Assembly (NCBI GenBank): GCA_965243185.1
Contig: OZ251531.1
Coordinates: 151,789 to 215,788, forward strand
Source: Dehalococcoidia bacterium
GTDB taxonomy: Bacteria; Chloroflexota; Dehalococcoidia; Lucifugimonadales; UBA3495
Direction: 5' to 3'
DNA: 64,000 bases
The position numbers were made by a program, and so were the translations under genes. The notes beneath the pieces were generated by a model. It was not told where the DNA came from, did no database searches, and was given only the letters and a program-made list of their open reading frames with translations. Below, in pieces: positions 6,952 to 39,785 of the stretch (position 1 is its first letter; the number at the start of each line of letters is the position of its first letter).

Positions 6952-7460
6952 AAGGGAGAGGTCTGAAACAAACCTGTAAGCCGGGTTCTGTATCCTGCCT
7001 TGCGGCGGGATGGTGACCATCTATCTAGCCCCCGGCAGCAGTATCGGCAGACGCTGCCACCGGTCGACGCCAAGGAAAACCTCGCGCCGGACGATGTTGC
7101 CATCGGGGTCCAGCGGCCAACCCGGGGATGAGCCGGACACTCGTGCTCCCTCTATTCGGCCTTGCTCCAAGTGGGGTTTAGCCGCCGCTGCGTCACCGCA
7201 GCGACCGGGCGCTCTTACCGCCCGATTGCAACCTTACCGCCGAATTAGCCAAAGCCGCCGTATTTTGTGGCGCGGCGGCAATGACCGTGGTACCCGGCGG
7301 CGGTATGTTTCTGTGCCACTTTCCGTCCCCGGCGGCCGCCCGAAAGCCGCCGCCGAAGCCTGGGCGTTACCCAGCACCCTGTCCGGTGGAGCCCGGACTT
7401 TCCTCCCCGGCAGGAATTGCTCCCCACCGCGGCGGTCACCCGGTTTGCCCTGCCTCTCCC
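6952..7460 (-). ncRNA. rnpB: RNase P RNA, bacterial type A
   Basis: Minus-strand sequence contains GGAGGAAAGTCCGGGCTCCAC, GGGTAACGCCCAGG, ACAGAAACATACCGCC and ACAGAACCCGGCTTACAGG. The 5-prime GGGAGAGGCAGGGCAAACC pairs with the 3-prime GGTTTGTTTCAGACCTCTCCC (P1). End positions are +/- 5 nt. Confidence 0.92.
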
Positions 7461-12760: not shown

Positions 12761-12803
12761 AAAGCAAAGACGCCGGGTTGCCCCGGCGTCCTATGTTTCT
12801 TTT
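12761..12803. terminator. Bidirectional intrinsic terminator
   Basis: GACGCCGGG-TTGC-CCCGGCGTC stem, with T-rich runs on both strands. Sits between convergent panB and the 12845..13732 gene. Confidence 0.7.
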
Positions 12804-12844: not shown

Positions 12845-13732
12845 CTACTGGGATTTGGGCCGCCGACTTTCAATCTGGTCAACGATGAGCTGGAGTTCGT
12901 TCAAGGAGTTCTCGACTACCGCCGGATTTTCCTGCCGGATGGCGATGCCCTCCTGGTTCGACAAGCCGGTCAGGTCTATCGACATATCGGCCCGGATTTT
13001 GCCATCGGGGTTAGTCAGCTCCAGGTTTTGTTGAGACAGGGAAATCCGGGTTTGGGAAGTGAACATCCCCGGTTCGTAGGCATTGGCGTTGTAGAACTGC
13101 CGGGAAACCAGCGTTCCCAACTCCCGGTCAAAAGTTACGCTCCGCTCCAGGGCATTGGGATAATAAACCGTTACCTCGGCGTTGTCGATGACCTCCGTCG
13201 GCGTATAGTCCGTTATGAGCGCCGTGCGGCTCAGCGTGCAGCCGGCGGGGTCAAAGAGGGCAAAGAAAAAGGTAGTGGTTCGGGTACCCGTGTCCAGTTG
13301 CAGGCTGTACCAGGAAAGCACATCCGCATTCAGCAGCCTCAAATCCACGAAACCCTCGGCTACCACTTCGCCGAAGTCGGCCCGCGGCGGCTCCGCTTCG
13401 CAGCCGGTCTGCGCCATTGCTTCATTCGGGGCTGTGGTCGCCGCCGGCAACGGAGTAGGCGGCGGCTGGGTAGCTACCGGCGGCGCATTGCCCGAATTGG
13501 GGCTGCCGCCGGCCACCGGGGATTGAGCCGGTTGGACCGAGTTGCTCGGCTCTTGAGCCTGACTCGGGGAGTCTTGCACCAACAGCAAATATGCCACGGC
13601 CGCGCCGACAACCAGAATGGCGACTAACACCAAGATCAAAAGGATAGGCGAGCTGCCACCGCCTCCCCGATACTCCGGAGCTCTCGAGACTCTCAATTTT
13701 CCCTCCAATGGTTTGGTCAGGTAGCGGCTCAA
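12845..13732 (-). CDS. Membrane-anchored protein: one N-terminal TM helix, Pro/Thr/Gln linker, unknown extracytoplasmic domain
   Basis: TM segment PILLILVLVAILVVGAAVAYLLLV followed by a P/T/Q-rich linker. No recognisable family. Lies 53 nt downstream of the tubulin-like gene. Confidence 0.6.
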   Translation of the reverse strand: MSRYLTKPLEGKLRVSRAPEYRGGGGSSPILLILVLVAILVVGAAVAYLLLVQDSPSQAQEPSNSVQPAQSPVAGGSPNSGNAPPVATQPPPTPLPAATTAPNEAMAQTGCEAEPPRADFGEVVAEGFVDLRLLNADVLSWYSLQLDTGTRTTTFFFALFDPAGCTLSRTALITDYTPTEVIDNAEVTVYYPNALERSVTFDRELGTLVSRQFYNANAYEPGMFTSQTRISLSQQNLELTNPDGKIRADMSIDLTGLSNQEGIAIRQENPAVVENSLNELQLIVDQIESRRPKSQ

Positions 13733-13785
13733 GGCACAACCCTGAGCCGGAACTCAACGAAATGCAGTCGCTGCGGCCGACCGGG

Positions 13786-15054
13786 CTACAGGTTGGGCAA
13801 CATCTCCGACAGCTTGGAAATATCCTCCCAGCGTTTGCCGCGGCCTTCCCGCCGGTGTTGGGAACTGGTCATCATATTAGCCGCTTCCCGGTAAAACCAC
13901 TCAATCCGGTCCATCGCCTTGCCTTCGCCCAGGTTGGCGACGATAGCGGTAACGCTGATGGTATCGGAGATGCGGCCGGGATAGGTCCCTTTCCGCCGCC
14001 CGGCTCCCGGCACCAGTTCGGCAAAGGTATTGTCCATCATCTCCACGATTTCCTCGGTGGCTTCGTTGGCCGGGCCGCTGAACAGCCCCAGCACGTGCTG
14101 AGCGTCATAGAGCGACTTGCCGTCCTCAATATACTCGCAGTCCAGGGAAAGCTCGGACAGGGCTTGACTGACCACCGTTTGCGCCCGCTCAATCTGCGCC
14201 TTGGAAACGGAAAAATGCTGGTTGGCCCGGTCACTGCCGCCGCGTAGCCGCCCGAACCAGGACGACTTGACCCGCCGCACTTCCGGAATGGCCGCGTGGC
14301 TGACCCCGATAACCGAAGGCCCTTTGAGGATGCGGATGACATCGTTGGCGTCCAACACTTCCCCGATAAAGCGCCGGTCCGTTTCCTCCCCGACGCAGAG
14401 GATGTCCATAAAGGAGTCGGCAATTTTCCGGTTGATGGTGTTGTAGTTCAACCCCATCGAATCCTGCTTGCGGGCGAACTTCTGATTATCCACCAGAAAC
14501 ACCGCGTCGGCTTTGGAGTTCTCCAGCACCTTTTTCAGGCAGGTCGCAGTGTTGATGACGCTGTCCGGTTCGTCATACTGGTTCTCAAACGGCAGCACCA
14601 GCATCGCGTAAACCGGCTTCTTGAACTCCTCTTTCAGCAGATCAACGATGACCCCGACCGAGCCGGAACCGGTGCCGCCGGCAGTGGTGGCGATGACCAG
14701 AATGGCATCGGCGGAATACACATCCCCGTGGTCGCGGATGGTCGAGGCAATCTTGCGGGAATCCCGCCGGGCCTGTTCCGCCCCGTCGGCGTTGACCTTA
14801 CCCGCGCCCCGGCCCCGGAACTCGTCCGTCGAACCCAGCAGGATGGTGTGGTCGTCAGTCTGCGGTATATGCTCCAGCCCGTACAGGTCGCCGGCGCCCA
14901 GGTTGACGGCAAAAACGCCCCGGCAAATCGGGTCGCTGTCCGAACCGGTGAAAATCCGCACCCGCCGGTTGGCCCAGACCCAATGCCCCAGAGCGACAAA
15001 CTCGTCGGCTATGTTCGACCCGCCCTGGCCGGTTCCTACGACAACCAGTTTCAT
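13786..15054 (-). CDS. Tubulin/FtsZ-superfamily GTPase (CetZ-like layout)
   Basis: GTGQGGSN (T1), ATTAGGTGSGS (tubulin signature), FLVDNQ and LDANDV (T7-like) seen. AAGGAG Shine-Dalgarno 7 nt upstream of the ATG. Confidence 0.8.
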   Translation of the reverse strand: MKLVVVGTGQGGSNIADEFVALGHWVWANRRVRIFTGSDSDPICRGVFAVNLGAGDLYGLEHIPQTDDHTILLGSTDEFRGRGAGKVNADGAEQARRDSRKIASTIRDHGDVYSADAILVIATTAGGTGSGSVGVIVDLLKEEFKKPVYAMLVLPFENQYDEPDSVINTATCLKKVLENSKADAVFLVDNQKFARKQDSMGLNYNTINRKIADSFMDILCVGEETDRRFIGEVLDANDVIRILKGPSVIGVSHAAIPEVRRVKSSWFGRLRGGSDRANQHFSVSKAQIERAQTVVSQALSELSLDCEYIEDGKSLYDAQHVLGLFSGPANEATEEIVEMMDNTFAELVPGAGRRKGTYPGRISDTISVTAIVANLGEGKAMDRIEWFYREAANMMTSSQHRREGRGKRWEDISKLSEMLPNL

Positions 15055-15179: not shown

Positions 15180-15208
15180 CCCATTGTAACACATCCCATT
15201 GTAACACA
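15180..15208 (-). promoter_or_regulatory. Tandemly duplicated extended -10 element upstream of the tubulin-like gene
   Basis: Plus strand has CCCATTGTAACACA twice (15180-15193 and 15195-15208), which is TGTGTTACAATGGG x2 on the coding strand (TGnTACAAT). Located in an AT-rich gap that also carries two GCAATTGC palindromes. Confidence 0.45.
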
Positions 15209-15365
15209 AGCAACCAAATGCAAGCAATTTGAGGCAATTGCATAAGCTCGAACAAAATTATAATGCAATTGCCCTGGTTTCCTTGTTGTATATCCTGGGG
15301 CTGGTGGTCTTTTACTTGGCCTATCGGCTGACCGCATGACCCGCCCACCCCACCCCATTCCATTC

Positions 15366-17588
15366 CTATTCCCCCCGCCCCTTTTGCCGCCGCCAAATGC
15401 GCGCCAACCGCAGCTCGTCATAAGTAAATTGGCCGGCCAGGTATTCCCACGCCGGGTTAAGGAAATCGTCGCCGCAGGCGTCAAAGGCGGCGTTGATTTG
15501 GTCGAACCGTTCCGCAGCCGGCAGCAAGTGGGCTAAATCCAGAGTTTCCCCCTGCATCGTCAGCCGCTCCAGATGCCCCAAGATAGTCTGCTCCGCCAAG
15601 TTGCGCCGGCGGGCGATTTCGGATAGGGAAAGTTTTTGTTCCAGCAGAGCGCGGGTGGCGGCGTAGGTATTGCTTCGCCGGGGTTCCAAGGTCGGTTGCC
15701 GGCCTTCCCGTTCCCGGCCGCTGCGATTCGCCGCCGCCGCCAGCGGCCGCGCCGCCGTGCGGTCGGCAATGCCCCGGGCCGCCGCATACTGGCGGATGGC
15801 GGCCACAAAGCGCGGGCCGTACTGCTCCAACTTGGCCGCCCCTACGCCGGGGATTTGGGCAAAGCTGTCCAGACTTTGCGGAAAGAGGGCCGCCATCTGG
15901 CGCAGGGATACATCGCCGAAAACCACATACGCCGGCACATCCTGCTCCTCCGCCAACTGACGGCGCAGGTTCCGCAGTTCCGCAAACAGAGCCGTATCAT
16001 ATTCCGCGGCGGCCGCCGCCTTGCCGGCCAATGGCGCAGTAGCGGCTTCCGTCTCCGGCCGGGGACGGGGCAGCGTCAGCTTTTGCCGTTCCTGGAGAAA
16101 CCGCCGCCCCTTATCGGTTACGCCCAGAGTAGGAAACTCCCCTTCATTGCGCGCCAGCAAACCCCGGGCCTGCAACTGTCCCATCAATTCCCGCAGTTCC
16201 GACCGTCCGAAATCCCGGACGACGCCGTACACGCTCAACTGGTTATGCCCCAACTCCAGAACCCGCTTTTCCTGGCTGCCGGTCAGCACTTGGGCAATGT
16301 GCAGCGTACCGAAACGCTGGCCGGTGCGGATGACGGCGGAGAGTATCTTTTGGGCTATTTCGGTAGCGTCAAACTCCTCGGACGCGGCCAGGCAGACATC
16401 GCAGCCGCCGCAGTTGTCCGTCGTCCAGTGTTCCCCGAAATACTCCAAAATGTAGCGGCGGCGGCAAGCCGGCAACTCGGCAAACTGCACCATCTGCGCC
16501 AGTTTCAACCGGGCGTTGCGCTGCTCGGCGGTATCCTCCATCTGGTTGATGAAATAGTCCTGCTTGGCTTTGTCGGCGTAGTTGTAGAACAGGACGCACT
16601 GGCTGGGCAAGCCATCCCGCCCGGCCCGGCCGGTTTCCTGATAGTAGCCTTCCAGCGACTTGGGCAGGCTGTAGTGAACCACCAGGCGAATATCCGGCTT
16701 GTCAATGCCCATCCCGAAAGCAATCGTAGCAACGATAATCGGTACCCGGTCGCGGATAAAATCCTCTTGATTTTGCCGGCGGGAATCAGCGTTTAGTCCG
16801 GCGTGGTAAGGGCGGGCCGACAAGCCCCGGGCGTTCAAGTCATCAGCCAGTTCCTCGGTGTCCCGCCGGGAAAAGCAGTAAATGATAGTTGACTGCTGTC
16901 GCTGTTCCTGCAACAGGGTGAGCAGTGCGCCCCAGGAGTTGCCTTTGGGCATTACGGCGTAGCTGAGATTGTCCCGGTTAAAGCTGGACAGGAAAACCCG
17001 CCCCGGCTGCAAATCCAGTTGGCTGCTGATGTCGGCCCGCACCCGTTCCGTAGCGGTGGCGGTGAGGGCAATGACCGGCGTTTGGGGAAAGTCCCGCCGC
17101 AAGGCCCGCAGATTGCGGTAATCCGGGCGAAACTCATGCCCCCATTCGGAAATGCAGTGGGCTTCGTCAATGGCAATGAGGCTCAACTCCAGATGTTCCA
17201 GAAAGTTGCGGAAACCGGGCAAAGCCAAGCGTTCCGGGGCCACATAGAGGATTTTGACTTCGCCCCGGGCCGTGGCGGCCTGCACCTGGTCAACTTCCGA
17301 AATGGGCAAAGAGCTGTTGATAAACCGGGCGGCGATGCCGTTGGCGTTCAGGGCATCCACCTGGTCTTTCATCAGGGCAATCAAGGGGGAAACCACCAGA
17401 GTAATGCCGGGGAAAAGCAGGGCCGGCAGCTGATAGCACAGGGATTTGCCGCCGCCGGTCGGCATCAACACCAGGCTATCCCCGCCCGCCAGGGTATGGC
17501 CGATAATCTCCTCCTGCAAAGGTCGAAAAGCGGCATACCCAAAATGGGATTTAAGCAAATCCAGCGGGGCGTCAGGGGCGGCGTTCAT
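15366..17588 (-). CDS. recQ: ATP-dependent DNA helicase RecQ with HRDC and C-terminal HTH extension
   Basis: FRPLQEEII, MPTGGGKSLCYQLPA, DEAHCISEWGHEFRPDY and the Zn-binding CRRR...CGGCDVC seen. Start set at the ATG at 17588. Confidence 0.92.
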   Translation of the reverse strand: MNAAPDAPLDLLKSHFGYAAFRPLQEEIIGHTLAGGDSLVLMPTGGGKSLCYQLPALLFPGITLVVSPLIALMKDQVDALNANGIAARFINSSLPISEVDQVQAATARGEVKILYVAPERLALPGFRNFLEHLELSLIAIDEAHCISEWGHEFRPDYRNLRALRRDFPQTPVIALTATATERVRADISSQLDLQPGRVFLSSFNRDNLSYAVMPKGNSWGALLTLLQEQRQQSTIIYCFSRRDTEELADDLNARGLSARPYHAGLNADSRRQNQEDFIRDRVPIIVATIAFGMGIDKPDIRLVVHYSLPKSLEGYYQETGRAGRDGLPSQCVLFYNYADKAKQDYFINQMEDTAEQRNARLKLAQMVQFAELPACRRRYILEYFGEHWTTDNCGGCDVCLAASEEFDATEIAQKILSAVIRTGQRFGTLHIAQVLTGSQEKRVLELGHNQLSVYGVVRDFGRSELRELMGQLQARGLLARNEGEFPTLGVTDKGRRFLQERQKLTLPRPRPETEAATAPLAGKAAAAAEYDTALFAELRNLRRQLAEEQDVPAYVVFGDVSLRQMAALFPQSLDSFAQIPGVGAAKLEQYGPRFVAAIRQYAAARGIADRTAARPLAAAANRSGREREGRQPTLEPRRSNTYAATRALLEQKLSLSEIARRRNLAEQTILGHLERLTMQGETLDLAHLLPAAERFDQINAAFDACGDDFLNPAWEYLAGQFTYDELRLARIWRRQKGRGE

Positions 17589-17637
17589 TGGGGGCAAGAC
17601 CTTTGGGAAAGGTTGAGTTTGGCGGCATAGCCTAAGA

Positions 17638-19338
17638 TTATATACCAACTAAACGCCGGTTGTTTTCCTTTGCCGGCAATGGCCCCATAGGCTCGCAACG
17701 CAGCTCGAACATTTCCCCCAACCGCCGGATTTCCGGGTCGTCCCAAGCCCATACCTTGCCGGCTTGCCCTTGGGCAATCAGATCCTTGACTTGGGCGATA
17801 ATCCGGGCACGGTTAGCGGCGCTGACCCACCAAGGGTAGGGCATTCGCTCCAAGTCTTTGCTCTGGATGTTCTGGGTGTGGTTGATAACCGTTTTCAGGA
17901 TGCGGTTAGCCAAGGGCGACAAGAGCCAGCCCAGGGTGAAAAAAAGCTCCTCCCGGTCAATGCCTTCCCGCAGGAAAGCGCAGGGCGCGCCACTGTCCAG
18001 GGCGTAGCCCTCCGGGATGTAGCGGGCAATGAACCGGGATGCGACCAGATGCCAGGTCAGCCCCTCTTTGCCAAAATAAGGTTGCCCGCCAACGCCGCGC
18101 AGGTACCAGTTCCCGGTTTTCTTGTAAGTAAGCACCGCATCGCCGTCATTTTCCCAAAATATGTAATGGGTGGGCGGCGAGAATACCAAGCGGCTGTTCC
18201 CGATATTGTAAGGACGATAGCGATCATCAGGCAGCGGTATGACCAGGGGATTTTCCCGGGTCAATACCTTGACCCGCCGCTCGGTAGCGCCGCGGGCTTC
18301 GGCGTCTTTCAGCATAGCACGGCGTTTCGGCGACAGCTTGCCCAGCCGGGCCCGTTCCAGTTCGTAATCCAACGTAACCGGGGCGTCATAGAACTCGAAA
18401 CGGTAGGGTTCGACGATCCTCTGCTGCTCATCGACGCGGCGGACAAAGAGCCGGTTTTTGCCGGTGGTCATACCGCTCGACGCGACAAAGTAATCGCCCA
18501 GCAGGGGGCCGGAGAAAAACTTTGCCAATTCCTCGGTAATTCCCCAAGACAAGTGGGGCGTGGATTTGATGGTTTGCTTGGCCAAGGGGCGGGAGTTGTG
18601 TACCACGACGCCCCGGTTGACGCCCTTTTGGAAGTTCAGGGTCAGCGTGGGGTAATCGGTTTCCGCCGAGAACTGCTGAATATCGGTCAGGGTTACTGCG
18701 CCCTGCTCCATAATCAGCTGCCGCAAGCCGGCCATGGTCGGTATCGTCAGCAGGGTATTGCTGCATACGAATACCAGCCGCCCGCCGGGACGGAGCAAAT
18801 CCAGGGCGGCCACGATAAAAAAGGCGTAGGTTTCCTTCTTGATTTTCCGCCCCAGCCGCTTGCCCAGGATACGATCGAGGGTGTCCTCAATAGCCGGGTC
18901 AAAAGTGCCGCCGAAAGGGGGGTTGCCGATTATCAGGTCGAAACTTTCGGCTTGCAGACCGCCCGGGGCGGCGGCGGACATACCGTTGACGATGCCGGAC
19001 AGATACTCCCGGAAAAAATCGGCTTGGCGGATTTCTCCGCGCCAGGCGTCCGGGAACTGCCGGGATTTTCCGGCCAGGATACGGCTAGACCTTGCCGCCA
19101 GTTCCGGGTCAATTTCAATGCCCAGCAGCTCGACGCCCCGGCTGCTTTGGGCTGTCTCCGACGCGGTAAGACGGTCGGCAATAGCGGAAAGAAAGGCTCC
19201 GTCGCCGCAGGAAGGCTCCAGAATCCGCCGGCAACCCTCCAGGGGAACGCCGGCCGCTATATCCCGCGCCAACCACTGCGGGGTCATATACTGCCCGGTC
19301 TGGCGCTTCATCGCCCGGTGGCGTTTGCTTTGGCTCAT
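17638..19338 (-). CDS. N6-adenine DNA methyltransferase, gamma-class (TaqI/Eco57I-like) with C-terminal target-recognition region
   Basis: Motif I ILEPSCGDGAFL and motif IV IIGNPPFGG seen. The ATG overlaps the stop of the upstream ORF (ATGA). Confidence 0.85.
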   Translation of the reverse strand: MSQSKRHRAMKRQTGQYMTPQWLARDIAAGVPLEGCRRILEPSCGDGAFLSAIADRLTASETAQSSRGVELLGIEIDPELAARSSRILAGKSRQFPDAWRGEIRQADFFREYLSGIVNGMSAAAPGGLQAESFDLIIGNPPFGGTFDPAIEDTLDRILGKRLGRKIKKETYAFFIVAALDLLRPGGRLVFVCSNTLLTIPTMAGLRQLIMEQGAVTLTDIQQFSAETDYPTLTLNFQKGVNRGVVVHNSRPLAKQTIKSTPHLSWGITEELAKFFSGPLLGDYFVASSGMTTGKNRLFVRRVDEQQRIVEPYRFEFYDAPVTLDYELERARLGKLSPKRRAMLKDAEARGATERRVKVLTRENPLVIPLPDDRYRPYNIGNSRLVFSPPTHYIFWENDGDAVLTYKKTGNWYLRGVGGQPYFGKEGLTWHLVASRFIARYIPEGYALDSGAPCAFLREGIDREELFFTLGWLLSPLANRILKTVINHTQNIQSKDLERMPYPWWVSAANRARIIAQVKDLIAQGQAGKVWAWDDPEIRRLGEMFELRCEPMGPLPAKENNRRLVGI

Positions 19339-20036
19339 GGCACGAATCGCATACTGGACTGGTTCACCGCAAAGTCGGTGAGCAAGAATGCGGTGAGCTG
19401 TTGCTTTTGGTGATGGAGCCGCTCTAATCGGTTGTTAATCAGAACTTGAACCTGTTCCTCGAACAACTCGAAAAGAGCGGTGGCTTTCTCCTGAATCGAC
19501 CGGGCCGGGGGCTGATGGCCGGCGTCAAAAGCGTCATAGAATTCCTGCTCCCGGAGCATTATCTGCCCCGGGCCGGCATCGTAGGCAATGAACTCCAGCC
19601 AGTCCAGCAAATCGAAAAGATAAGCCTTGTGGCTAATCTCCTCAGCTATGCTGAATTTGACCATCAGCAGGTAGTAGGAATCAATCCACTGCTGAAACAG
19701 GTAGTTAAGCAGCTTCCGCATGGCAACTACATTGGGTTGACCTTTCTGACCTTGCAGCCCGGATTTAACATTGACCGGGTTGAAAATGCCCCGGGACTGA
19801 ACCCAAATGTCGCCCATCGAGCGTTTCAGCACCCCGCCTTTGCGGTCGCCCTCGTAGCAGGTATCCAAGTGAACCTTGAGCAACGAGCAGGTTCGGTCGT
19901 CGACGAAGTCGGCAATGTGATGGCCGGGTTCTTTGCCGTCGATTAGCTCGACAAAGCCGCGGTCCCGGACATGGCTTGCCCAGTGTTCGTTGACCAAGCC
20001 CAGTATCTGATTTTGGAGCGTAACCTCAAGAGCCAT
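19335..20036 (-). CDS. Putative type II restriction endonuclease (partner of the methyltransferase)
   Basis: 233-aa ORF translationally coupled to the MTase. Possible PD-(D/E)XK-like GDIWV...NPVNVK. GC looks lower than the surroundings. No family recognised. Confidence 0.5.
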   Translation of the reverse strand: MALEVTLQNQILGLVNEHWASHVRDRGFVELIDGKEPGHHIADFVDDRTCSLLKVHLDTCYEGDRKGGVLKRSMGDIWVQSRGIFNPVNVKSGLQGQKGQPNVVAMRKLLNYLFQQWIDSYYLLMVKFSIAEEISHKAYLFDLLDWLEFIAYDAGPGQIMLREQEFYDAFDAGHQPPARSIQEKATALFELFEEQVQVLINNRLERLHHQKQQLTAFLLTDFAVNQSSMRFVP

Positions 20037-36281: not shown

Positions 36282-37667
36282 CTACCCCCGCCGCCGCTGG
36301 TTGCGGTAGTTGGGGGCGGTTATCGCGTGCCAATCTACCATCGCCCCGTCCATCAGGCGGGAGCCGATACGCGGTTTCATCCCTTCAAGTTCCTCCGCGC
36401 TGAACACCGAAGTTAGCACCGTGGGCAGTCGGGTATCGTAGCGATAGACCACAATCTGGTACAGCTTTTCCTCAGCCCAAGGGGTGCTGCTTTCGGTGCC
36501 CAAATCGTCCAGAATCAGCAGCGGCGCCGTCTTGACCTGCTCGAACAGTTCATCGTAGCTGATGGGACTGTCCGGGCTGAAGGCCCCCCGCAAATGGTCG
36601 AGCAGGGCCGGCACAAAGGTATAGAAGGCCGGCCGGCCGCGCCGGATGCTTTCCCCGGCAATGGCTACCGCCAGATGGGTCTTGCCGCAGCCGCGGGGGC
36701 CGGTAAGCAGCAACCAGCCCCTCGGGTGTTCGGCGAAGGCAGCCGTAGCCTGCTTGGCCCGGTTCAGCGTCTCCCGTCCGGCGGCGTCAGCATTAACGCC
36801 GCCCCAAGGGTCAAAGGCGTCAAAAGTCATCCGCTGTCGCATATCCCCTGGTATATCCCCCACCCGCCGCGCCAAACGGGTATTATGCTCCCCCAAGCGA
36901 AACACCCGGGAAAAGCCGCCGGCGGTTTCCATACGGGTACGCAGCCCTTCGTCAAGCCGCTCGACCGGCCCCCGCACGGTGATAATGGTCGGCAGGGCGG
37001 CGTTAAAGCGATGGTTCAGTATCTGAAACAGCTTTTCCTGCGCCCAAGGGGTGGTAGCCTGAACACTCAAGTCATCCAACGCCAGCACCGGCACATTGCG
37101 AACCTGCTCGAACAGGTCATCATAGGAAACCGGATTGTCCGGGGCATAGGTAGCCCGCAGATGGTCCAGCAGGTCGGCGGCCACGATAAAATAGGTGGTA
37201 AAGCCCAATTCAATGCAGCGATTGGCTGTCGCTACCGCCAACTGCGTCTTGCCGCTGCCGCTGGGGCCGGTAAAGGTCATCCAGCCTTGGGGATTGGCGG
37301 CAAAGGCGGCGGCCGCTTCCCGGGCCGCCCGGAACATTCCTTGGCTGACCGCATCCGGCAGCGGCCCCTCCGGACGGATATTGTCCAGGGTGATGCGGCG
37401 GAGTTCGCCCAAGTTGCTGTAGCGATGCAGGGCGGCGACCCGCCCGGCCGGTTCCTGCTCCTGGCAACGGCAGGGAAACGCCTCGCCAAAATCTGGATGA
37501 CCCACCGGCACCCGCTTGCTGACCCAGCCGGCGCCGTGGCAGATAGGGCAAGGCTCCCCCTCCGGCTCCTCCGGGCTGATGCTGGGGATGCCCGCCCTAT
37601 CGCCATTGATAGTCCTCCGGGTACTGGGGTCGGCGATCCGGCGCAGAATGTCGCCCAGGCTTTCCAT
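36282..37667 (-). CDS. DnaC/DnaI-like helicase loader with an N-terminal Zn module and two tandem AAA+ modules
   Basis: CPICHGAGW...CRC, then Walker A GPSGSGKT with Walker B VLALDDL, then a second Walker A GPRGCGKT with Walker B LLILDDL. The two halves align throughout. ATG at 37667 preceded by GGAGAGGA. Confidence 0.8.
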   Translation of the reverse strand: MESLGDILRRIADPSTRRTINGDRAGIPSISPEEPEGEPCPICHGAGWVSKRVPVGHPDFGEAFPCRCQEQEPAGRVAALHRYSNLGELRRITLDNIRPEGPLPDAVSQGMFRAAREAAAAFAANPQGWMTFTGPSGSGKTQLAVATANRCIELGFTTYFIVAADLLDHLRATYAPDNPVSYDDLFEQVRNVPVLALDDLSVQATTPWAQEKLFQILNHRFNAALPTIITVRGPVERLDEGLRTRMETAGGFSRVFRLGEHNTRLARRVGDIPGDMRQRMTFDAFDPWGGVNADAAGRETLNRAKQATAAFAEHPRGWLLLTGPRGCGKTHLAVAIAGESIRRGRPAFYTFVPALLDHLRGAFSPDSPISYDELFEQVKTAPLLILDDLGTESSTPWAEEKLYQIVVYRYDTRLPTVLTSVFSAEELEGMKPRIGSRLMDGAMVDWHAITAPNYRNQRRRG

Positions 37668-38403
37668 TCTCAATCCTCTCCTCTGGCCAAAGAGTAGCCC
37701 CGGCTTTGACGCCAATGCCGGGCGCGGCGGCCGGCGCGCTGTCGGCCGATTTTGCCAAGTCGATTTTGCCCTCGGCCGCCCAACGGCGCAGAATGGCCGC
37801 TATATAGCTCCAACTGCGCTTGTTTTCCCGGATGGCAATGTCAAAGGCGGCGGCAATCCAACTTTCCGGGTAGCTGTCCTCCGCCTCTTGCAAGTAAGCC
37901 GCCATTTGCGGGCCAATCAAGCCGATATTGTCCTCATAAAGGGCGTAGATGTTGGGACGATTGCCGGCCGGCGGTTCCGGGGCGGCCGGCTCCACCGGGT
38001 CGAACTGCGCCCCATCCGACGGAACCGGCGTAGCGCCATCGGCCGCTTGCCGGGCTAAATGGCGGCGGTTGGCGGCGGTGTTCAGCAGGTAGCGGGGGCT
38101 ATCCCCGCCGGCCGCCGGGACGGGCAGCAAGGTTTTGCGGGCAACGGCTTGCGCCAATCCCCGCCGTACTTGTTCCGGCGGATTGCCGCCCAGGGATTTG
38201 ACCCCTTGCCGCAGCGTCGGGTCGTTCAGCAGTTCGTCCTCGCTCAAAGCGCGGATGGCAACCCGCTTTTGGCTCAGCAGCCAGAAAGCGCGCAAAGTTA
38301 CTTTCAGTTCCGCCGCATCCTCAATTTCCGCCAGCAGGGAATTAAAGAAAGGGTCGGGAACCGGCGTGGCCCGGACATTGGCCGGAAAGCCGTTAAAGGC
38401 CAT
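37597..38403 (-). CDS. DnaD-domain replication protein
   Basis: C-terminal pattern IYALYEDNIGLI...WIAAAFDIAIRENKRSWSYIAAILRRW typical of the DnaD/DnaB_2 domain. Its 3-prime end overlaps the loader gene by ~71 nt. Confidence 0.7.
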   Translation of the reverse strand: MAFNGFPANVRATPVPDPFFNSLLAEIEDAAELKVTLRAFWLLSQKRVAIRALSEDELLNDPTLRQGVKSLGGNPPEQVRRGLAQAVARKTLLPVPAAGGDSPRYLLNTAANRRHLARQAADGATPVPSDGAQFDPVEPAAPEPPAGNRPNIYALYEDNIGLIGPQMAAYLQEAEDSYPESWIAAAFDIAIRENKRSWSYIAAILRRWAAEGKIDLAKSADSAPAAAPGIGVKAGATLWPEERIENGKPGRHSAPDRRPQYPEDYQWR

Positions 38404-38405
38404 GG

Positions 38406-39785
38406 CTAAAACTCCTCGTCGCCGCGGCCCAAGGCGTCAAAGCGCACCAAGTTGCTGCGAAACCGCAACTTGACGCTGCCCACCGGCCCGTGCCGGTGCT
38501 TGGCGACGATTATCTCCGCAATGTTGCGGGGATAGGGCCGGTCGGGAAAGTGCTGCTGCCAATCCTCCTCGGTGTAATAGACATCCTCCCGGTAGATGAA
38601 CATTACAATGTCGGCGTCCTGCTCAATGGAGCCGCTGTCCCGCAAGTCGGAAAGCTGCGGCCGGTGACCGGGGCGGCCTTCGACGATGCGGCTGAGCTGG
38701 GAGCAGGTTACGATGGGAATCCGCAAATCCCGGGCCATGCCCTTGAGGGAGCGGGAGATTTCGCTGATTTCCTGTACCCGGTTTTCCCCCACCCGGCCGC
38801 TGCGATTCTGCCCCGGAATCAGCTGCAAATAGTCCACCACCAGCAAATCCAGCCCGTCGGGACTGAGGGACAGCCGCCGCGCCTTGCCGCGCATTTCCAC
38901 GATGCCCTGAAAGGGGGTATCGTCGATATAGACCGGCAGCTCCGACAGTTCGCCGATGGAGTCGTTGACCCGCTGTTCCTCCGGTTCGGACAGCAGCCCC
39001 AAGCGCAGGCGGTGGGCGTCCACTTCGGCATCGCTGGACAGGATGCGGATGCCCAACTGCTCCCGGCTCATTTCCAAGCTGAAAATGCCCACGGTAGCCC
39101 CGTTGCGGGCGGCGCTGATGGATACATTGACCGCCAAGGCGCTTTTGCCCAAACCGGGACGGGCCCCTAATATCAGCATATCGGAACGCTGCATCCCGCC
39201 CAGCAGTTGATCCAGGTCATTATAGCCGGTCATTACCGGAGCGGTGTCATCGAGGGCCGGATCCGCCAGGGCCGCCCGGTCTTCGAGGAACTGGTCATAA
39301 ATCTGCCGCAGGGAAACAAAGCCGCGTTCCGGCTGATTGTCCCGCACCTTGAACAGCACATCCTCGGCCTGCCGCAGGGTAGTCTCCACATCGGCGGTGT
39401 CGGCGTAACCCAAGGCGGAGATGCGGCCGCCGGCGTTAATCAGCCGGCGCATTACCGAAGTGCGGGAAACCAGTTGCGCGTAGTATTCGGCGTGGGTCGA
39501 AGTGGGCGTTACCGAAACCAGATGGCTCAGATACGCCATCCCGCCCACATTTTCCAGTTGGCCGGTGCGCTGCAACTCCCGGGCCAGCGTAACCTGGTCA
39601 ATGGCTTCGTTGCGCTGAAACAGGTCCGTAGTGGCGGCAAAGCACAGCCGGTTTTTCTCCCGATAGAAGTCCTCCGGCTTAATCAGATGGGAGACCTGGA
39701 GAAAGGAATCGCTGTCAATCAGCAGCGACCCGATAACGGCTTCCTCGGCCTCGATGTCGTGGGGCAGCAACTGCTCCGCGTACAT
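38406..39785 (-). CDS. dnaB: Replicative DNA helicase
   Basis: LPHDIEAEEAVIGSLL, Walker A GARPGLGKSA, LVVDYLQL and SQLSR seen. Confidence 0.95.
   Translation of the reverse strand: MYAEQLLPHDIEAEEAVIGSLLIDSDSFLQVSHLIKPEDFYREKNRLCFAATTDLFQRNEAIDQVTLARELQRTGQLENVGGMAYLSHLVSVTPTSTHAEYYAQLVSRTSVMRRLINAGGRISALGYADTADVETTLRQAEDVLFKVRDNQPERGFVSLRQIYDQFLEDRAALADPALDDTAPVMTGYNDLDQLLGGMQRSDMLILGARPGLGKSALAVNVSISAARNGATVGIFSLEMSREQLGIRILSSDAEVDAHRLRLGLLSEPEEQRVNDSIGELSELPVYIDDTPFQGIVEMRGKARRLSLSPDGLDLLVVDYLQLIPGQNRSGRVGENRVQEISEISRSLKGMARDLRIPIVTCSQLSRIVEGRPGHRPQLSDLRDSGSIEQDADIVMFIYREDVYYTEEDWQQHFPDRPYPRNIAEIIVAKHRHGPVGSVKLRFRSNLVRFDALGRGDEEF

Follow-up and report, generated by a model that had tools for sequence, protein, structure and literature searches.

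CetZ proteins are viewed as cytoskeletal proteins of archaea. Two of them, CetZ1 and CetZ2 of Haloferax volcanii, are reportedly shape and motility factors rather than division proteins, and how CetZ proteins are attached to the membrane is, to our knowledge, not known; nor do we know of any archaeal equivalent of the bitopic partner protein described below. Bacterial FtsZ, which belongs to the same superfamily, operates with ZipA, FtsA, SepF or EzrA, the shared logic being that a cytoplasmic GTP-dependent filament is anchored at the membrane by a separate protein, with a short conserved peptide (here a proposed one) as the point of contact. ZipA itself comprises an N-terminal transmembrane helix, a Pro-rich linker and a globular C-terminal domain. 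In the MreB–RodZ system, a bitopic protein places its cytoplasmic N-terminus on the filament and has its C-terminal domain on the outside.

SAR202-type Dehalococcoidia are reported to be prominent in the dark ocean, and are represented also among sponge-associated MAGs. Genomes of SAR202 and of Dehalococcoidales are described as having lost their peptidoglycan genes, with walls of the S-layer type and ftsZ–ftsA retained, and an mraZ-mraW-ftsZ-ftsA arrangement has been reported in both (PMC10608941, PMC11994032). CetZ-like genes in Dehalococcoidia are mentioned in one sentence of a 2023 paper, and Chloroflexota sequences were placed among 'CetZ-like' proteins by Santana-Molina et al. (2023).

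The subject of this work is a gene pair in a 64,000-nucleotide stretch of DNA (the window) from a SAR202-type Dehalococcoidia MAG, to a contig of which (L007) it is 100% identical, the host being a marine bacterium and not an archaeon. An earlier note, made from the sequence alone, had described a 422-residue GTPase ORF accompanied by a downstream ORF on the same strand, and both are indeed present on the minus strand.

Assignment of the GTPase

The upstream gene of the pair (13786..15054, minus strand), the ATG start codon of which is preceded by an AAGGAG Shine-Dalgarno sequence, encodes a 422-residue CetZ-like member of the tubulin superfamily. Profile searches, which the earlier note had put forward as a check, returned Pfam Tubulin (PF00091) over residues 3–194 with 79.5 bits (cutoff 33, E=5e-22) and CetZ_C (PF21011) over residues 198–391, nearly the whole model, with 37.4 bits (cutoff 21.6, E=2e-9). 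These scores indicate that the GTPase motifs are not chance matches, whereas no FtsZ_C domain was found in the protein by Pfam even at E values up to 1. The FtsZ equivalog model TIGR00065 reached 39.3 bits against a cutoff of 295.2, and tblastn with unverified E. coli and B. subtilis FtsZ queries gave no match to the GTPase gene. The best matches in a sequence search of the PDB were to CetZ1 (4b46, 1.4e-24), CetZ2 (4b45, 6e-16) and Methanosaeta CetZ (3zid, 1e-9), with weaker matches to TubZ (1e-5), FtsZ (1e-4 or weaker) and gamma-tubulin (1e-3). The suggestion that the protein is CetZ-like and not an FtsZ is thus borne out by the CetZ_C match, by the identity of the best PDB matches and by the failure of TIGR00065. 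A further superfamily member, FtsZl1, has a Tubulin_2 domain (Makarova and Koonin 2010), whereas the window GTPase falls below the gathering score for this domain (PF13809), which was matched over residues 113–155 only with 20.8 bits (cutoff 27).

All of the motifs that had been picked out in the initial reading, namely GTGQGGSN, ATTAGGTGSGS, FLVDNQ and LDANDV, were recovered in the translation. In the T1-type loop GTGQGGSN (residues 7–14; 15013..15036, minus strand) the glycines at positions 7, 9 and 12 are invariant or nearly so (alignments A1 and A2). ATTAGGTGSGS occupies residues 122–132 and contains the sequence AGGTGSG (residues 125–131; 14662..14682, minus strand) of the nucleotide-binding T4 loop, which fits the PROSITE tubulin signature, [SAG]GGTG[SA]G, and in which the stretch from G126 to G131 shows no variation among 14 divergent family members, while FLVDNQ corresponds to residues 186–191. 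The T7-like loop LDANDV (residues 234–239; 14338..14355, minus strand) was located by HMMER alignment to 4b46, which pairs D235 with CetZ1 D215 and D238 with CetZ1 E218, the latter reportedly being the residue of CetZ1 at which GTPase activity is blocked. In alignment A1 there is almost no variation at D238, and in A2 both D235 and D238 are invariant; judged from the sequence, the loop appears to supply the acidic residue for activation of GTP hydrolysis.

The alignment to 4b46 also places the tip of the M-loop, WFGRL (residues 266–270; 14245..14259, minus strand), opposite LLSRL in the M-loop of CetZ1, the family consensus being S-L-L-G-R (alignment A5). The C-terminus of the protein reads ...WEDISKLSEMLPNL, with the motif L-P-N-L at its extreme end (13789..13800, minus strand). 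An (L/I/V)-P-x-L ending is kept in the family down to ~30% identity, and a similar ending, [DE][IL]x[SP]L[FL], occurs in many canonical CetZ representatives. A long, hydrophobic-tipped M-loop and an extreme C-terminal hydrophobic motif therefore both seem to be features of the window GTPase. For CetZ1 to drive rod formation at the envelope, the T7 loop, the M-loop tip and the C-terminal hydrophobic motif are needed (bioRxiv 10.1101/2024.04.08.588506), and alignment reveals an equivalent of each of the three in the window protein. A monomer model built from 28 close homologues had a pLDDT of 45, which was too poor for a fold search.

Homologues of the GTPase form more than 1,891 clusters, the top matches being 73–94% identical, and a precomputed CetZ_C match was present in 120 of 120 homologues among the matches listed. 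Identity is 89–94% across many species, with a median of 75.5% over 66 loci, and such very strong conservation fits a polymer-forming protein; its gene ranks among the most highly conserved of SAR202-type Dehalococcoidia. In a neighbour-joining tree (vectorised Kimura distances, 98 sequences, 378 columns, 100 bootstraps) the window GTPase lies in a 31-member clade with 88% bootstrap support, which is sister to the clade containing CetZ1 and CetZ2, and it falls outside the canonical CetZ clade and is not nested within it; the tree is a distance tree in which most representatives are without a label and the outgroup consists of unverified FtsZ sequences. The gene may possibly have been acquired from archaea, an idea that the sister, non-nested position neither supports nor refutes.

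When compared with the archaeal proteins (CetZ1 and CetZ2 of H. volcanii; 4b46, 4b45, 3zid), the window GTPase has in common the GTPase domain, CetZ_C, the T7 acidic residue, the hydrophobic-tipped long M-loop and the extreme C-terminal hydrophobic motif, and its host likewise has an S-layer envelope without peptidoglycan. Conversely, it differs in having a bacterial host, ~27% identity to CetZ1, a separate sister clade, extra insertions in the N-terminal domain (residues ~25–46) and a dedicated bitopic partner gene. CetZ-like genes of the Dehalococcoidales type fall in the same 88%-supported clade, and their products also combine Tubulin and CetZ_C with a terminal (L/I)PxL, but these are 36–38% identical to the window GTPase, ~390 residues in length and without a bitopic partner. 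They often occur as two paralogues either side of a gene for a ~710-residue Ala/Glu/Lys-rich protein, beside dnaX-ybaB-recR.

The GTPase gene is not located in a dcw cluster, which distinguishes it further from ftsZ: it is surrounded by panB, recQ and further housekeeping genes, which vary by locus, and no ftsA, ftsQ, mur or ftsZ gene is found within the 64-kb window. The claim that it stands outside the division cluster and is not the only ftsZ of its host finds support at the level of the lineage (PMC10608941, PMC11994032), and since ftsZ–ftsA is reported for the lineage, the CetZ-like gene is most likely an extra cytoskeletal gene.

The partner membrane protein

The downstream gene (12845..13696, minus strand) most likely starts with the TTG codon at 13696, since a GGAGGG Shine-Dalgarno sequence lies 5 nt upstream and the homologues all begin at the equivalent site with M-R-x-S-R. 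It accordingly encodes a 283-residue protein, predicted to be a bitopic membrane protein with a cytoplasmic N-terminus of ~16 residues, and not, as first described, a protein of 295 residues with ~25 in the cytoplasm; the same correction changes the intergenic gap from 53 to 89 nt. The remainder of the original description, with one transmembrane helix, a linker and a further domain of no recognised family, agrees with the structural model and with the null searches below.

The most conserved part of this fast-evolving protein is an N-terminal motif, M-R-V-S-R-A-P-E-Y-R-G-G (13661..13696, minus strand), for which the consensus among homologues is MRxSR(A/V)PExRG. In 79 unique N-termini, retrieved with a search pattern that itself required R5 and E or M at position 8, R10 occurs in 98% and P7 in 68%, and in an unconstrained alignment (A3) M1 and R5 are invariant, with E8 and R10 nearly so. 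Some sequences outside the search pattern have K at position 5.

In the AlphaFold2 model, the motif is followed by the single transmembrane helix (residues 17–41; 13574..13648, minus strand), a disordered Pro/Thr/Ala/Gln-rich linker with pLDDT below 50 (residues 42–96; 13409..13573, minus strand), the length and sequence of which vary widely among homologues, and a beta-rich, predicted outer domain that includes a C-terminal helix (residues 97–283; 12848..13408, minus strand). The outer domain is modelled with ~11 strands (residues 110–256) and a helix at residues 258–278, with pLDDT values of 75–92 over residues 100–200. A Foldseek comparison of the model with the PDB returned nothing significant (best E=0.036, TM 0.25 or less), and matches to lipocalin and nitrobindin barrels were disregarded as weak. 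The protein belongs to no family in Pfam or PADLOC, NCBIfam gave only weak matches of low complexity, the 8 listed including neither a ZipA nor a RodZ model, and no homology to ZipA, FtsA, SepF, EzrA or RodZ was apparent by sequence or fold (Pfam, NCBIfam, Foldseek). Its likeness to the known anchors ZipA, RodZ, SepF and EzrA does not go beyond architecture and a proposed role, and no description of the protein was found in the literature.

The mean net charge in partner homologues is +2.8 before the transmembrane helix and −1.3 after it, a bias which, by the positive-inside rule, favours the N-in/C-out topology that is predicted here. A Sec or Tat signal peptide was considered as a reading of the N-terminus and rejected, given a conserved n-region of 16 residues, the absence of a twin-arginine motif and a hydrophobic stretch of ~23–25 residues. 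With a median identity of 38%, versus 75.5% for the GTPase, the partner has diverged about twice as fast.

Conservation of the gene pair

A search with a six-sequence GTPase alignment identified about 70 species-level loci, which derive from SAR202, Dehalococcoidia and Chloroflexota MAGs. In all of the ~69 loci with downstream DNA, a partner homologue lies directly downstream of the GTPase gene on the same strand (raw ORF gaps of 9–274 nt; median 68 nt after start correction), while the flanking genes are wholly different between loci, as is evident when the window is compared with L004, L090 and L091. The gene pair is thus strictly conserved amid unrelated neighbours, which strongly favours the two-gene module envisaged in the earlier note and answers in the affirmative its question as to whether the transmembrane partner is kept in other genomes.

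Conservation of the N-terminal motif extends to partners that have otherwise been remodelled. In short-type partners the outer domain is a different one, yet motif, helix and linker are retained, as is the linkage to the GTPase gene, and in a branch at 51% identity a 59-residue protein composed of the motif and transmembrane helix adjoins the GTPase gene, in addition to a full-length partner. Since exchange or loss of the outer domain leaves it in place, the motif is proposed to represent the functional core of the partner. The LPxL motif at the C-terminus of the GTPase, on the other hand, is present also in subgroups that lack a bitopic partner, namely the Dehalococcoidales type and loci P0155 and P0167, indicating that the GTPase tail cannot be partner-specific.

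Proposed function and alternative explanations

It is proposed that the two genes encode a membrane-tethered, CetZ-like filament system that acts on the envelope or on cell shape, a reading to which a probability of about 0.55 is assigned. The GTPase, in which the nucleotide-binding loops and the T7 activating loop are intact, would be expected to polymerise by analogy with CetZ1 and FtsZ, forming dynamic, GTP-dependent protofilaments or sheets along the inner surface of the cytoplasmic membrane. The putative docking peptide of the partner, MRxSR(A/V)PExRG, probably docks on this polymer through direct physical contact and tethers it to the membrane, while the flexible Pro/Thr-rich stalk and variable beta-rich domain would connect the docking site to the S-layer-type envelope; such a system would organise the envelope or cell shape. 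In tying GTPase filaments to the cell envelope, as it probably does, the partner would provide a coupling comparable to that of MreB–RodZ or FtsZ–ZipA to the wall in other bacteria, and the pair would work alongside, and not instead of, the ftsZ–ftsA division genes reported for the lineage. MreB–RodZ offers the best functional analogy, although its proteins are unrelated, the filament being of the actin family and RodZ carrying a helix-turn-helix domain, whereas the partner has only a ~16-residue cytoplasmic peptide.

A strictly linked partner with a short cytoplasmic peptide is a concrete candidate adaptor for CetZ-like filaments, and the system bears on how wall-less bacteria set their shape and on whether CetZ-type proteins have been transferred across domains or are older than the divergence of the lineages that carry them today. 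A tentative and rather doubtful scenario is that the ancestor of SAR202 and Dehalococcoidales lost peptidoglycan together with the machinery for building a wall, that a CetZ-type cytoskeleton took over envelope and shape functions, and that SAR202 then evolved a transmembrane coupler. If true, the 12-residue cytoplasmic peptide of the partner would be the first membrane adaptor to be defined for a member of the CetZ family, and filaments linked via a glycoprotein-like stalk to the S-layer would amount to a bacterial cell with archaeal-style envelope mechanics.

The filaments and their tether could instead act at the division site with FtsZ and FtsA, and not on overall shape, compensating for the lost peptidoglycan septum machinery. 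The gene content of SAR202 would suit such an accessory role, with ftsZ and ftsA kept in genomes that are without ftsW, ftsI and peptidoglycan (PMC10608941, PMC11994032), and archaea are described, in one preprint, as commonly dividing with two tubulin-family proteins (bioRxiv 10.1101/2020.06.04.133736). The anatomy of the pair is equally compatible with a septal tether. However, the gene never adjoins ftsZ, ftsA, mraZ or mraW in the loci examined, and CetZ1 and CetZ2, to which its product is most closely related among characterised proteins, act in shape and motility (bioRxiv 10.1101/2024.04.08.588506), such that a role in division is considered unlikely.

Improbable, given the charge bias around the transmembrane helix, is a ZipA-like inversion, in which the partner would be oriented N-out/C-in and its beta-rich domain would bind the LPxL peptide of the GTPase in the cytoplasm. 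The order of transmembrane helix, Pro-rich linker and globular C-terminal domain does copy the layout of ZipA, and the terminal peptide of the GTPase is conserved, but the predicted topology is the opposite of that of ZipA, the C-terminal domain can be exchanged or missing without loss of the N-terminal motif, and its rapid evolution (39% median identity) contrasts with a nearly invariant LPxL tail. It is similarly hard to credit that the neighbour is just a surface protein that shares a transcript with the GTPase and is functionally independent of it, as its variable and unannotated outer domain might suggest; the adjacency persists over GTPase divergence of 51–94% and complete turnover of the flanks, and outlasts replacement of the partner's own outer domain, a pattern not readily accounted for unless the pairing is under selection.

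A TubZ/PhuZ-like system for the segregation of DNA or of a mobile element, despite the shared superfamily, the weak PDB match to TubZ (1e-5) and a 48%-identity relative on phage-like contigs directly after a ParB-like gene, is very improbable indeed, since the window gene lies in a chromosomal setting of housekeeping genes, the partner it does have is a membrane protein and no TubR-like or other DNA-binding partner is present, iterated centromere-like repeats are absent (there is only a two-copy duplication of the −10 element), and phage records gave no matches, with plasmid matches limited to haloarchaeal CetZ genes. A defence-system reading of the gene pair was discarded, there being no PADLOC matches.

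Transcriptional signals and flanking genes

The gene pair has the anatomy of an operon with its own promoter and terminator. A promoter-like element read from the sequence (15198..15227, minus strand) consists of a −35 TTGCTT (15227–15222), an 18-nt spacer and an extended −10, TGTTACAAT, with its hexamer at 15203–15198, and is positioned ~145 nt upstream of the GTPase start codon. The element was not flagged by a generic consensus promoter scan; the TTGCxx...TGTTACAAT block is kept upstream of the gene in relatives with at least 86% protein identity (alignment A6). The two-copy duplication of the −10 element is the only repeat near the GTPase gene. Both genes are preceded by Shine-Dalgarno sequences, and a search of Rfam yielded no RNA element for either the 5′ UTR or the intergenic region.

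A scan for terminator-like structures revealed a weak hairpin with a weak T-tail just past the GTPase stop codon (13765..13783, minus strand), which might serve as a partial terminator or attenuator, and a strong hairpin terminator past the partner stop codon (12767..12792, minus strand). The latter, with an 11-bp stem containing 8 GC pairs and a T-run, was detected on both strands and is common to the partner gene and the convergent panB. The recQ and panB flanks named in the earlier note were both upheld, recQ by Pfam (DEAD, Helicase_C, RecQ_Zn_bind, RQC and HRDC), and panB, as a predicted assignment, from its sequence and from a syntenic 279-residue PF02548 gene in loci L001–L003.

Gene models and operon organisation

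The two open reading frames described in the earlier note, encoding a CetZ-like GTPase of 422 aa (13786-15054, minus strand) and a membrane protein, hereafter the partner, of 295 aa (12845-13732, minus strand), are both present as claimed, as are all of the motifs ascribed to the GTPase (GTGQGGSN, ATTAGGTGSGS, FLVDNQ, LDANDV and the tail ...SEMLPNL). In the DNA, AAGGAG lies ahead of the GTPase ATG. Conversely, the length of the partner and the 53-nt intergenic gap had to be revised. The DNA reading favours a partner of 283 aa, with translation most likely initiating at a TTG codon at 13696, 5 nt past GGAGGG, to give MRVSRAPEYRGGGG..., and partner homologues all begin at the matching position; the gap with this start is 89 nt. 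A promoter-like block (TTGCTT, 18 nt, then TGTTACAAT) precedes the GTPase start by ∼145 nt, and is kept in relatives with at least 86% protein identity, while a strong hairpin terminator (12767-12792), common to the convergent panB gene, lies 3' of the partner gene. On the basis of the refined gene models, the promoter-like block and the terminator, the two genes look like a self-contained bicistronic operon, in which Rfam found no RNA elements.

Two repeats were also observed upstream of the GTPase gene. One is a 14-nt direct repeat (15180-15193 and 15195-15208) in which the TGTTACAAT -10 element is duplicated; the other, a perfect 11-nt inverted repeat, GGCAATTGCAT/ATGCAATTGCC (15233-15243 and 15263-15273), is situated just upstream of the -35. 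The inverted repeat, which is not kept in relatives, could be an operator.

Family assignment and phylogenetic position of the GTPase

Profile searches bore out the proposal that the GTPase is CetZ-like as opposed to an FtsZ. The protein matches Pfam Tubulin (79.5 bits, cutoff 33) and CetZ_C (37.4 bits, cutoff 21.6), whereas Tubulin_2 remains under its cutoff, FtsZ_C is not matched, and the NCBIfam FtsZ equivalog TIGR00065, for which the cutoff is 295 bits, gives a score of 39. The best solved-structure matches by sequence are Haloferax CetZ1 (4b46, 1.4e-24) and CetZ2 (4b45, 6e-16), followed by Methanosaeta CetZ (3zid, 1e-9), with solved TubZ, FtsZ and gamma-tubulin all at 1e-5 or weaker. Similarly, tblastn with CetZ1 matches the GTPase gene at 1e-22, while E. 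coli and B. subtilis FtsZ failed to match it. CetZ1 rod formation requires each of the T7 loop, the M-loop tip and the terminal LESLF motif (bioRxiv 10.1101/2024.04.08.588506). In alignment with CetZ1, D238 of the GTPase T7 loop corresponds to E218, and W266-L270 (family consensus SLLGR) to the M-loop tip LLSRL. At the extreme C-terminus, (L/I/V)-P-x-L is kept in the GTPase family down to ∼30% identity, and similar endings, ...[SP]L[FL], are seen in many representatives of canonical CetZ.

Among the 1.84 billion 50%-identity representatives searched, only 303 clusters were matched at E ≤0.001, and all full-length representatives lie nearer to CetZ1/CetZ2 than to FtsZ. In a bootstrapped neighbour-joining tree (98 sequences, 378 columns, FtsZ outgroup), the GTPase falls in an 8-sequence subclade (75% support) within a 31-member clade (88% support) that also contains the Dehalococcoidales-type genes described below, and whose named members are Dehalococcoidia. 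The 31-member clade is the sister of a large clade with CetZ1 and CetZ2. This placement is consistent with that of Santana-Molina et al. 2023 (PMC9871819). By sequence and tree, the GTPase is thus nearest to CetZ yet outside the canonical archaeal CetZ clade, and by analogy may work like CetZ.

Host lineage and distribution

Contig CBDESR010000004.1, from a Dehalococcoidia MAG, matches the window at 100% identity. Relatives of the GTPase with 60-94% identity occur in ∼70 genomes, each a species representative with the label Dehalococcoidia, Chloroflexota or SAR202 cluster, and more than 1,891 homologue clusters at 90% identity are present in the word-indexed database. SAR202 and Dehalococcoidales are reported to have lost the peptidoglycan (dcw) genes in a common ancestor, to have S-layer-type walls, and to keep adjacent mraZ-mraW-ftsZ-ftsA (PMC10608941, PMC11994032). 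The gene is located outside any division cluster, as had been suggested, the genes of the 64-kb window being housekeeping ones with no ftsZ among them. Because the surveys report that ftsZ is retained in the lineage, the CetZ-like gene is most likely an additional tubulin-family gene as opposed to the ftsZ of these bacteria.

The GTPase gene (63-66% identity) was also observed, together with the partner gene, on two contigs with a GC content of 42-44% (L061, 6001-8154; L067, 5959-8187). Their MAGs are labelled as the CPR bacteria Candidatus Saccharibacteria and Candidatus Spechtbacteria, which could reflect horizontal transfer or a binning error.

Pairing with a bitopic membrane partner

The partner has no family in Pfam, NCBIfam or PADLOC, and word-based searching recovered only 20 homologues. 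Nevertheless, where a 75%-identical GTPase occurs in an entirely different genomic setting, the next gene downstream encodes a protein 31% identical to the partner (E=8e-40). An iterated HMM search of all ORFs from 86 loci showed a partner homologue directly after the GTPase gene, on the same strand, at ∼69 loci, comprising every locus with a GTPase of at least 55% identity and with downstream DNA; the four loci lacking one are cut off by the end of a contig. After start correction, the gap has a median of 68 nt. Compared over identical pairs of genomes, the GTPase has a median identity of 75.5% and the partner one of 38%. The bitopic partner is absent from remoter Dehalococcoidia CetZ-like genes, namely those of the Dehalococcoidales type (36-38% identity) and the P0155, P0163 and P0167 loci. 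The LPxL tail of the GTPase is kept in the subgroups devoid of partner too, and thus is not partner-specific.

The partner N-terminus has the consensus M-R-x-(S/T)-(R/K)-(V/A)-(P/N)-E-x-R-(G/N)-(G/N), and a transmembrane helix begins ∼16 residues in. Since the charge is +2.8 ahead of the helix versus -1.3 past it, an N-in/C-out orientation is predicted. The helix is followed by a Pro/Thr/Ala-rich linker whose length varies widely and, in an AlphaFold2 model (mean pLDDT 66.6; 75-92 over residues 100-200), by a ∼190-aa beta-rich domain with a terminal helix, the model having no significant structural neighbour in the PDB. In a large group of short-type partners (205-235 aa, ∼105 clusters), the motif, helix and Pro/Thr linker are shared, but the outer domain is small and of another kind. 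Four of these, checked in genomic context, are directly downstream of a Tubulin + CetZ_C gene (L055, 1742-2425; L060, 2374-3063; L090, 5001-5657; L091, 2811-3458). At L095 (63-2687), which represents a 51%-identity branch, a gene for a 59-aa protein comprising only the motif (NARIPERYG) and a transmembrane helix comes after the GTPase gene, and is succeeded by one for a 357-aa full-length partner homologue that shares this motif variant (DDDLFNARRRERRRG). The exchange of outer domain in short-type partners, the 59-aa protein, and the lack of a partner at remoter CetZ-like genes mark the N-terminal peptide and helix as the constant part of the partner, and hence as its probable functional core.

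Possible function

Beyond the observed family assignment, operon anatomy, gene pairing and motif conservation, a model can be envisaged in which the GTPase polymerises with GTP on the inner membrane face, and the polymer is tethered to the membrane by docking of the cytoplasmic peptide of the partner. The stalk and outer domain would link the docking site to the S-layer-type envelope, with the result that the tethered filaments could organise the envelope or cell shape. The logic of such a system would be analogous to that of MreB-RodZ or FtsZ-ZipA, with CetZ1 as the analogue at the level of protein family. A septal accessory role beside FtsZ-FtsA is a plausible alternative. A TubZ/PhuZ-like role in segregation is disfavoured by the chromosomal context, by the lack of a DNA-binding partner or centromere repeats, and by the failure to find phage or bacterial plasmid relatives, although a ParB-like gene precedes one 48%-identical relative, on a contig that is phage-like. 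A ZipA-like, inverted topology of the partner is at odds with the charge bias across the helix and with the exchangeability of the C-terminal domain. Mere co-transcription of the two genes seems unlikely given that the pairing persists.

CetZ-like genes in Dehalococcoidia are already in the literature, if only as a passing remark. In the papers that could be read, no description was found of how pervasive and how extremely conserved these genes are in SAR202-type genomes, of a dedicated bitopic partner of a CetZ-like GTPase, or of the conserved cytoplasmic peptide. For experimenters, the partner represents a specific candidate for the membrane adaptor of a CetZ-type cytoskeleton in a wall-less bacterial group of ecological prominence.

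Other CetZ-like arrangements and features of the window

In Dehalococcoidales/Dehalococcoidaceae MAGs (L076, 1870-7173; also L081, L082 and L086), two CetZ-like paralogues of ∼390 aa each (Tubulin + CetZ_C, 57-74 bits) flank a 705-732-aa Ala/Glu/Lys-rich protein without a family and a ∼175-aa opposite-strand protein. These loci adjoin dnaX-ybaB-recR-recO and have no bitopic partner; the arrangement differs from the pair in the window and is undescribed. The 48%-identical relative, P0143, is encoded directly after the ParB-like gene (phrog_1033) on phage-like contigs (L087, 3459-5491; also L088 and L089), which also encode phage-family matches to a nucleoside deoxyribosyltransferase, a radical-SAM protein and an RNA-ligase-family protein, the last also matching Pfam Acb1. 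P0143 may represent a mobile-element-borne CetZ-like segregation system.

Within the window, a full-length bacterial class A RNase P RNA is present at 6961-7451 (minus strand; 208 bits, gathering score 100). The region at 15366-20036 (minus strand) comprises recQ, an Eco57I/N6_Mtase-type DNA methyltransferase gene (17638-19338) and, overlapping the latter by 4 nt, a 233-aa ORF without a family (19335-20036) that may encode a restriction partner of the methyltransferase. Since the loci of a 94%-identical relative (L001-L003) carry ABC-transporter permeases on this side of the operon in place of the recQ-methyltransferase block, the latter appears to result from a local rearrangement or insertion. 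Finally, dnaB (38406-39785, minus strand) has close downstream a gene for a 477-aa IstB/DnaC-like ATPase (36282-37715, minus strand) with two separate P-loop regions (residues ∼120-200 and 320-460), and a 268-aa ORF (37597-38403) lies between the two.
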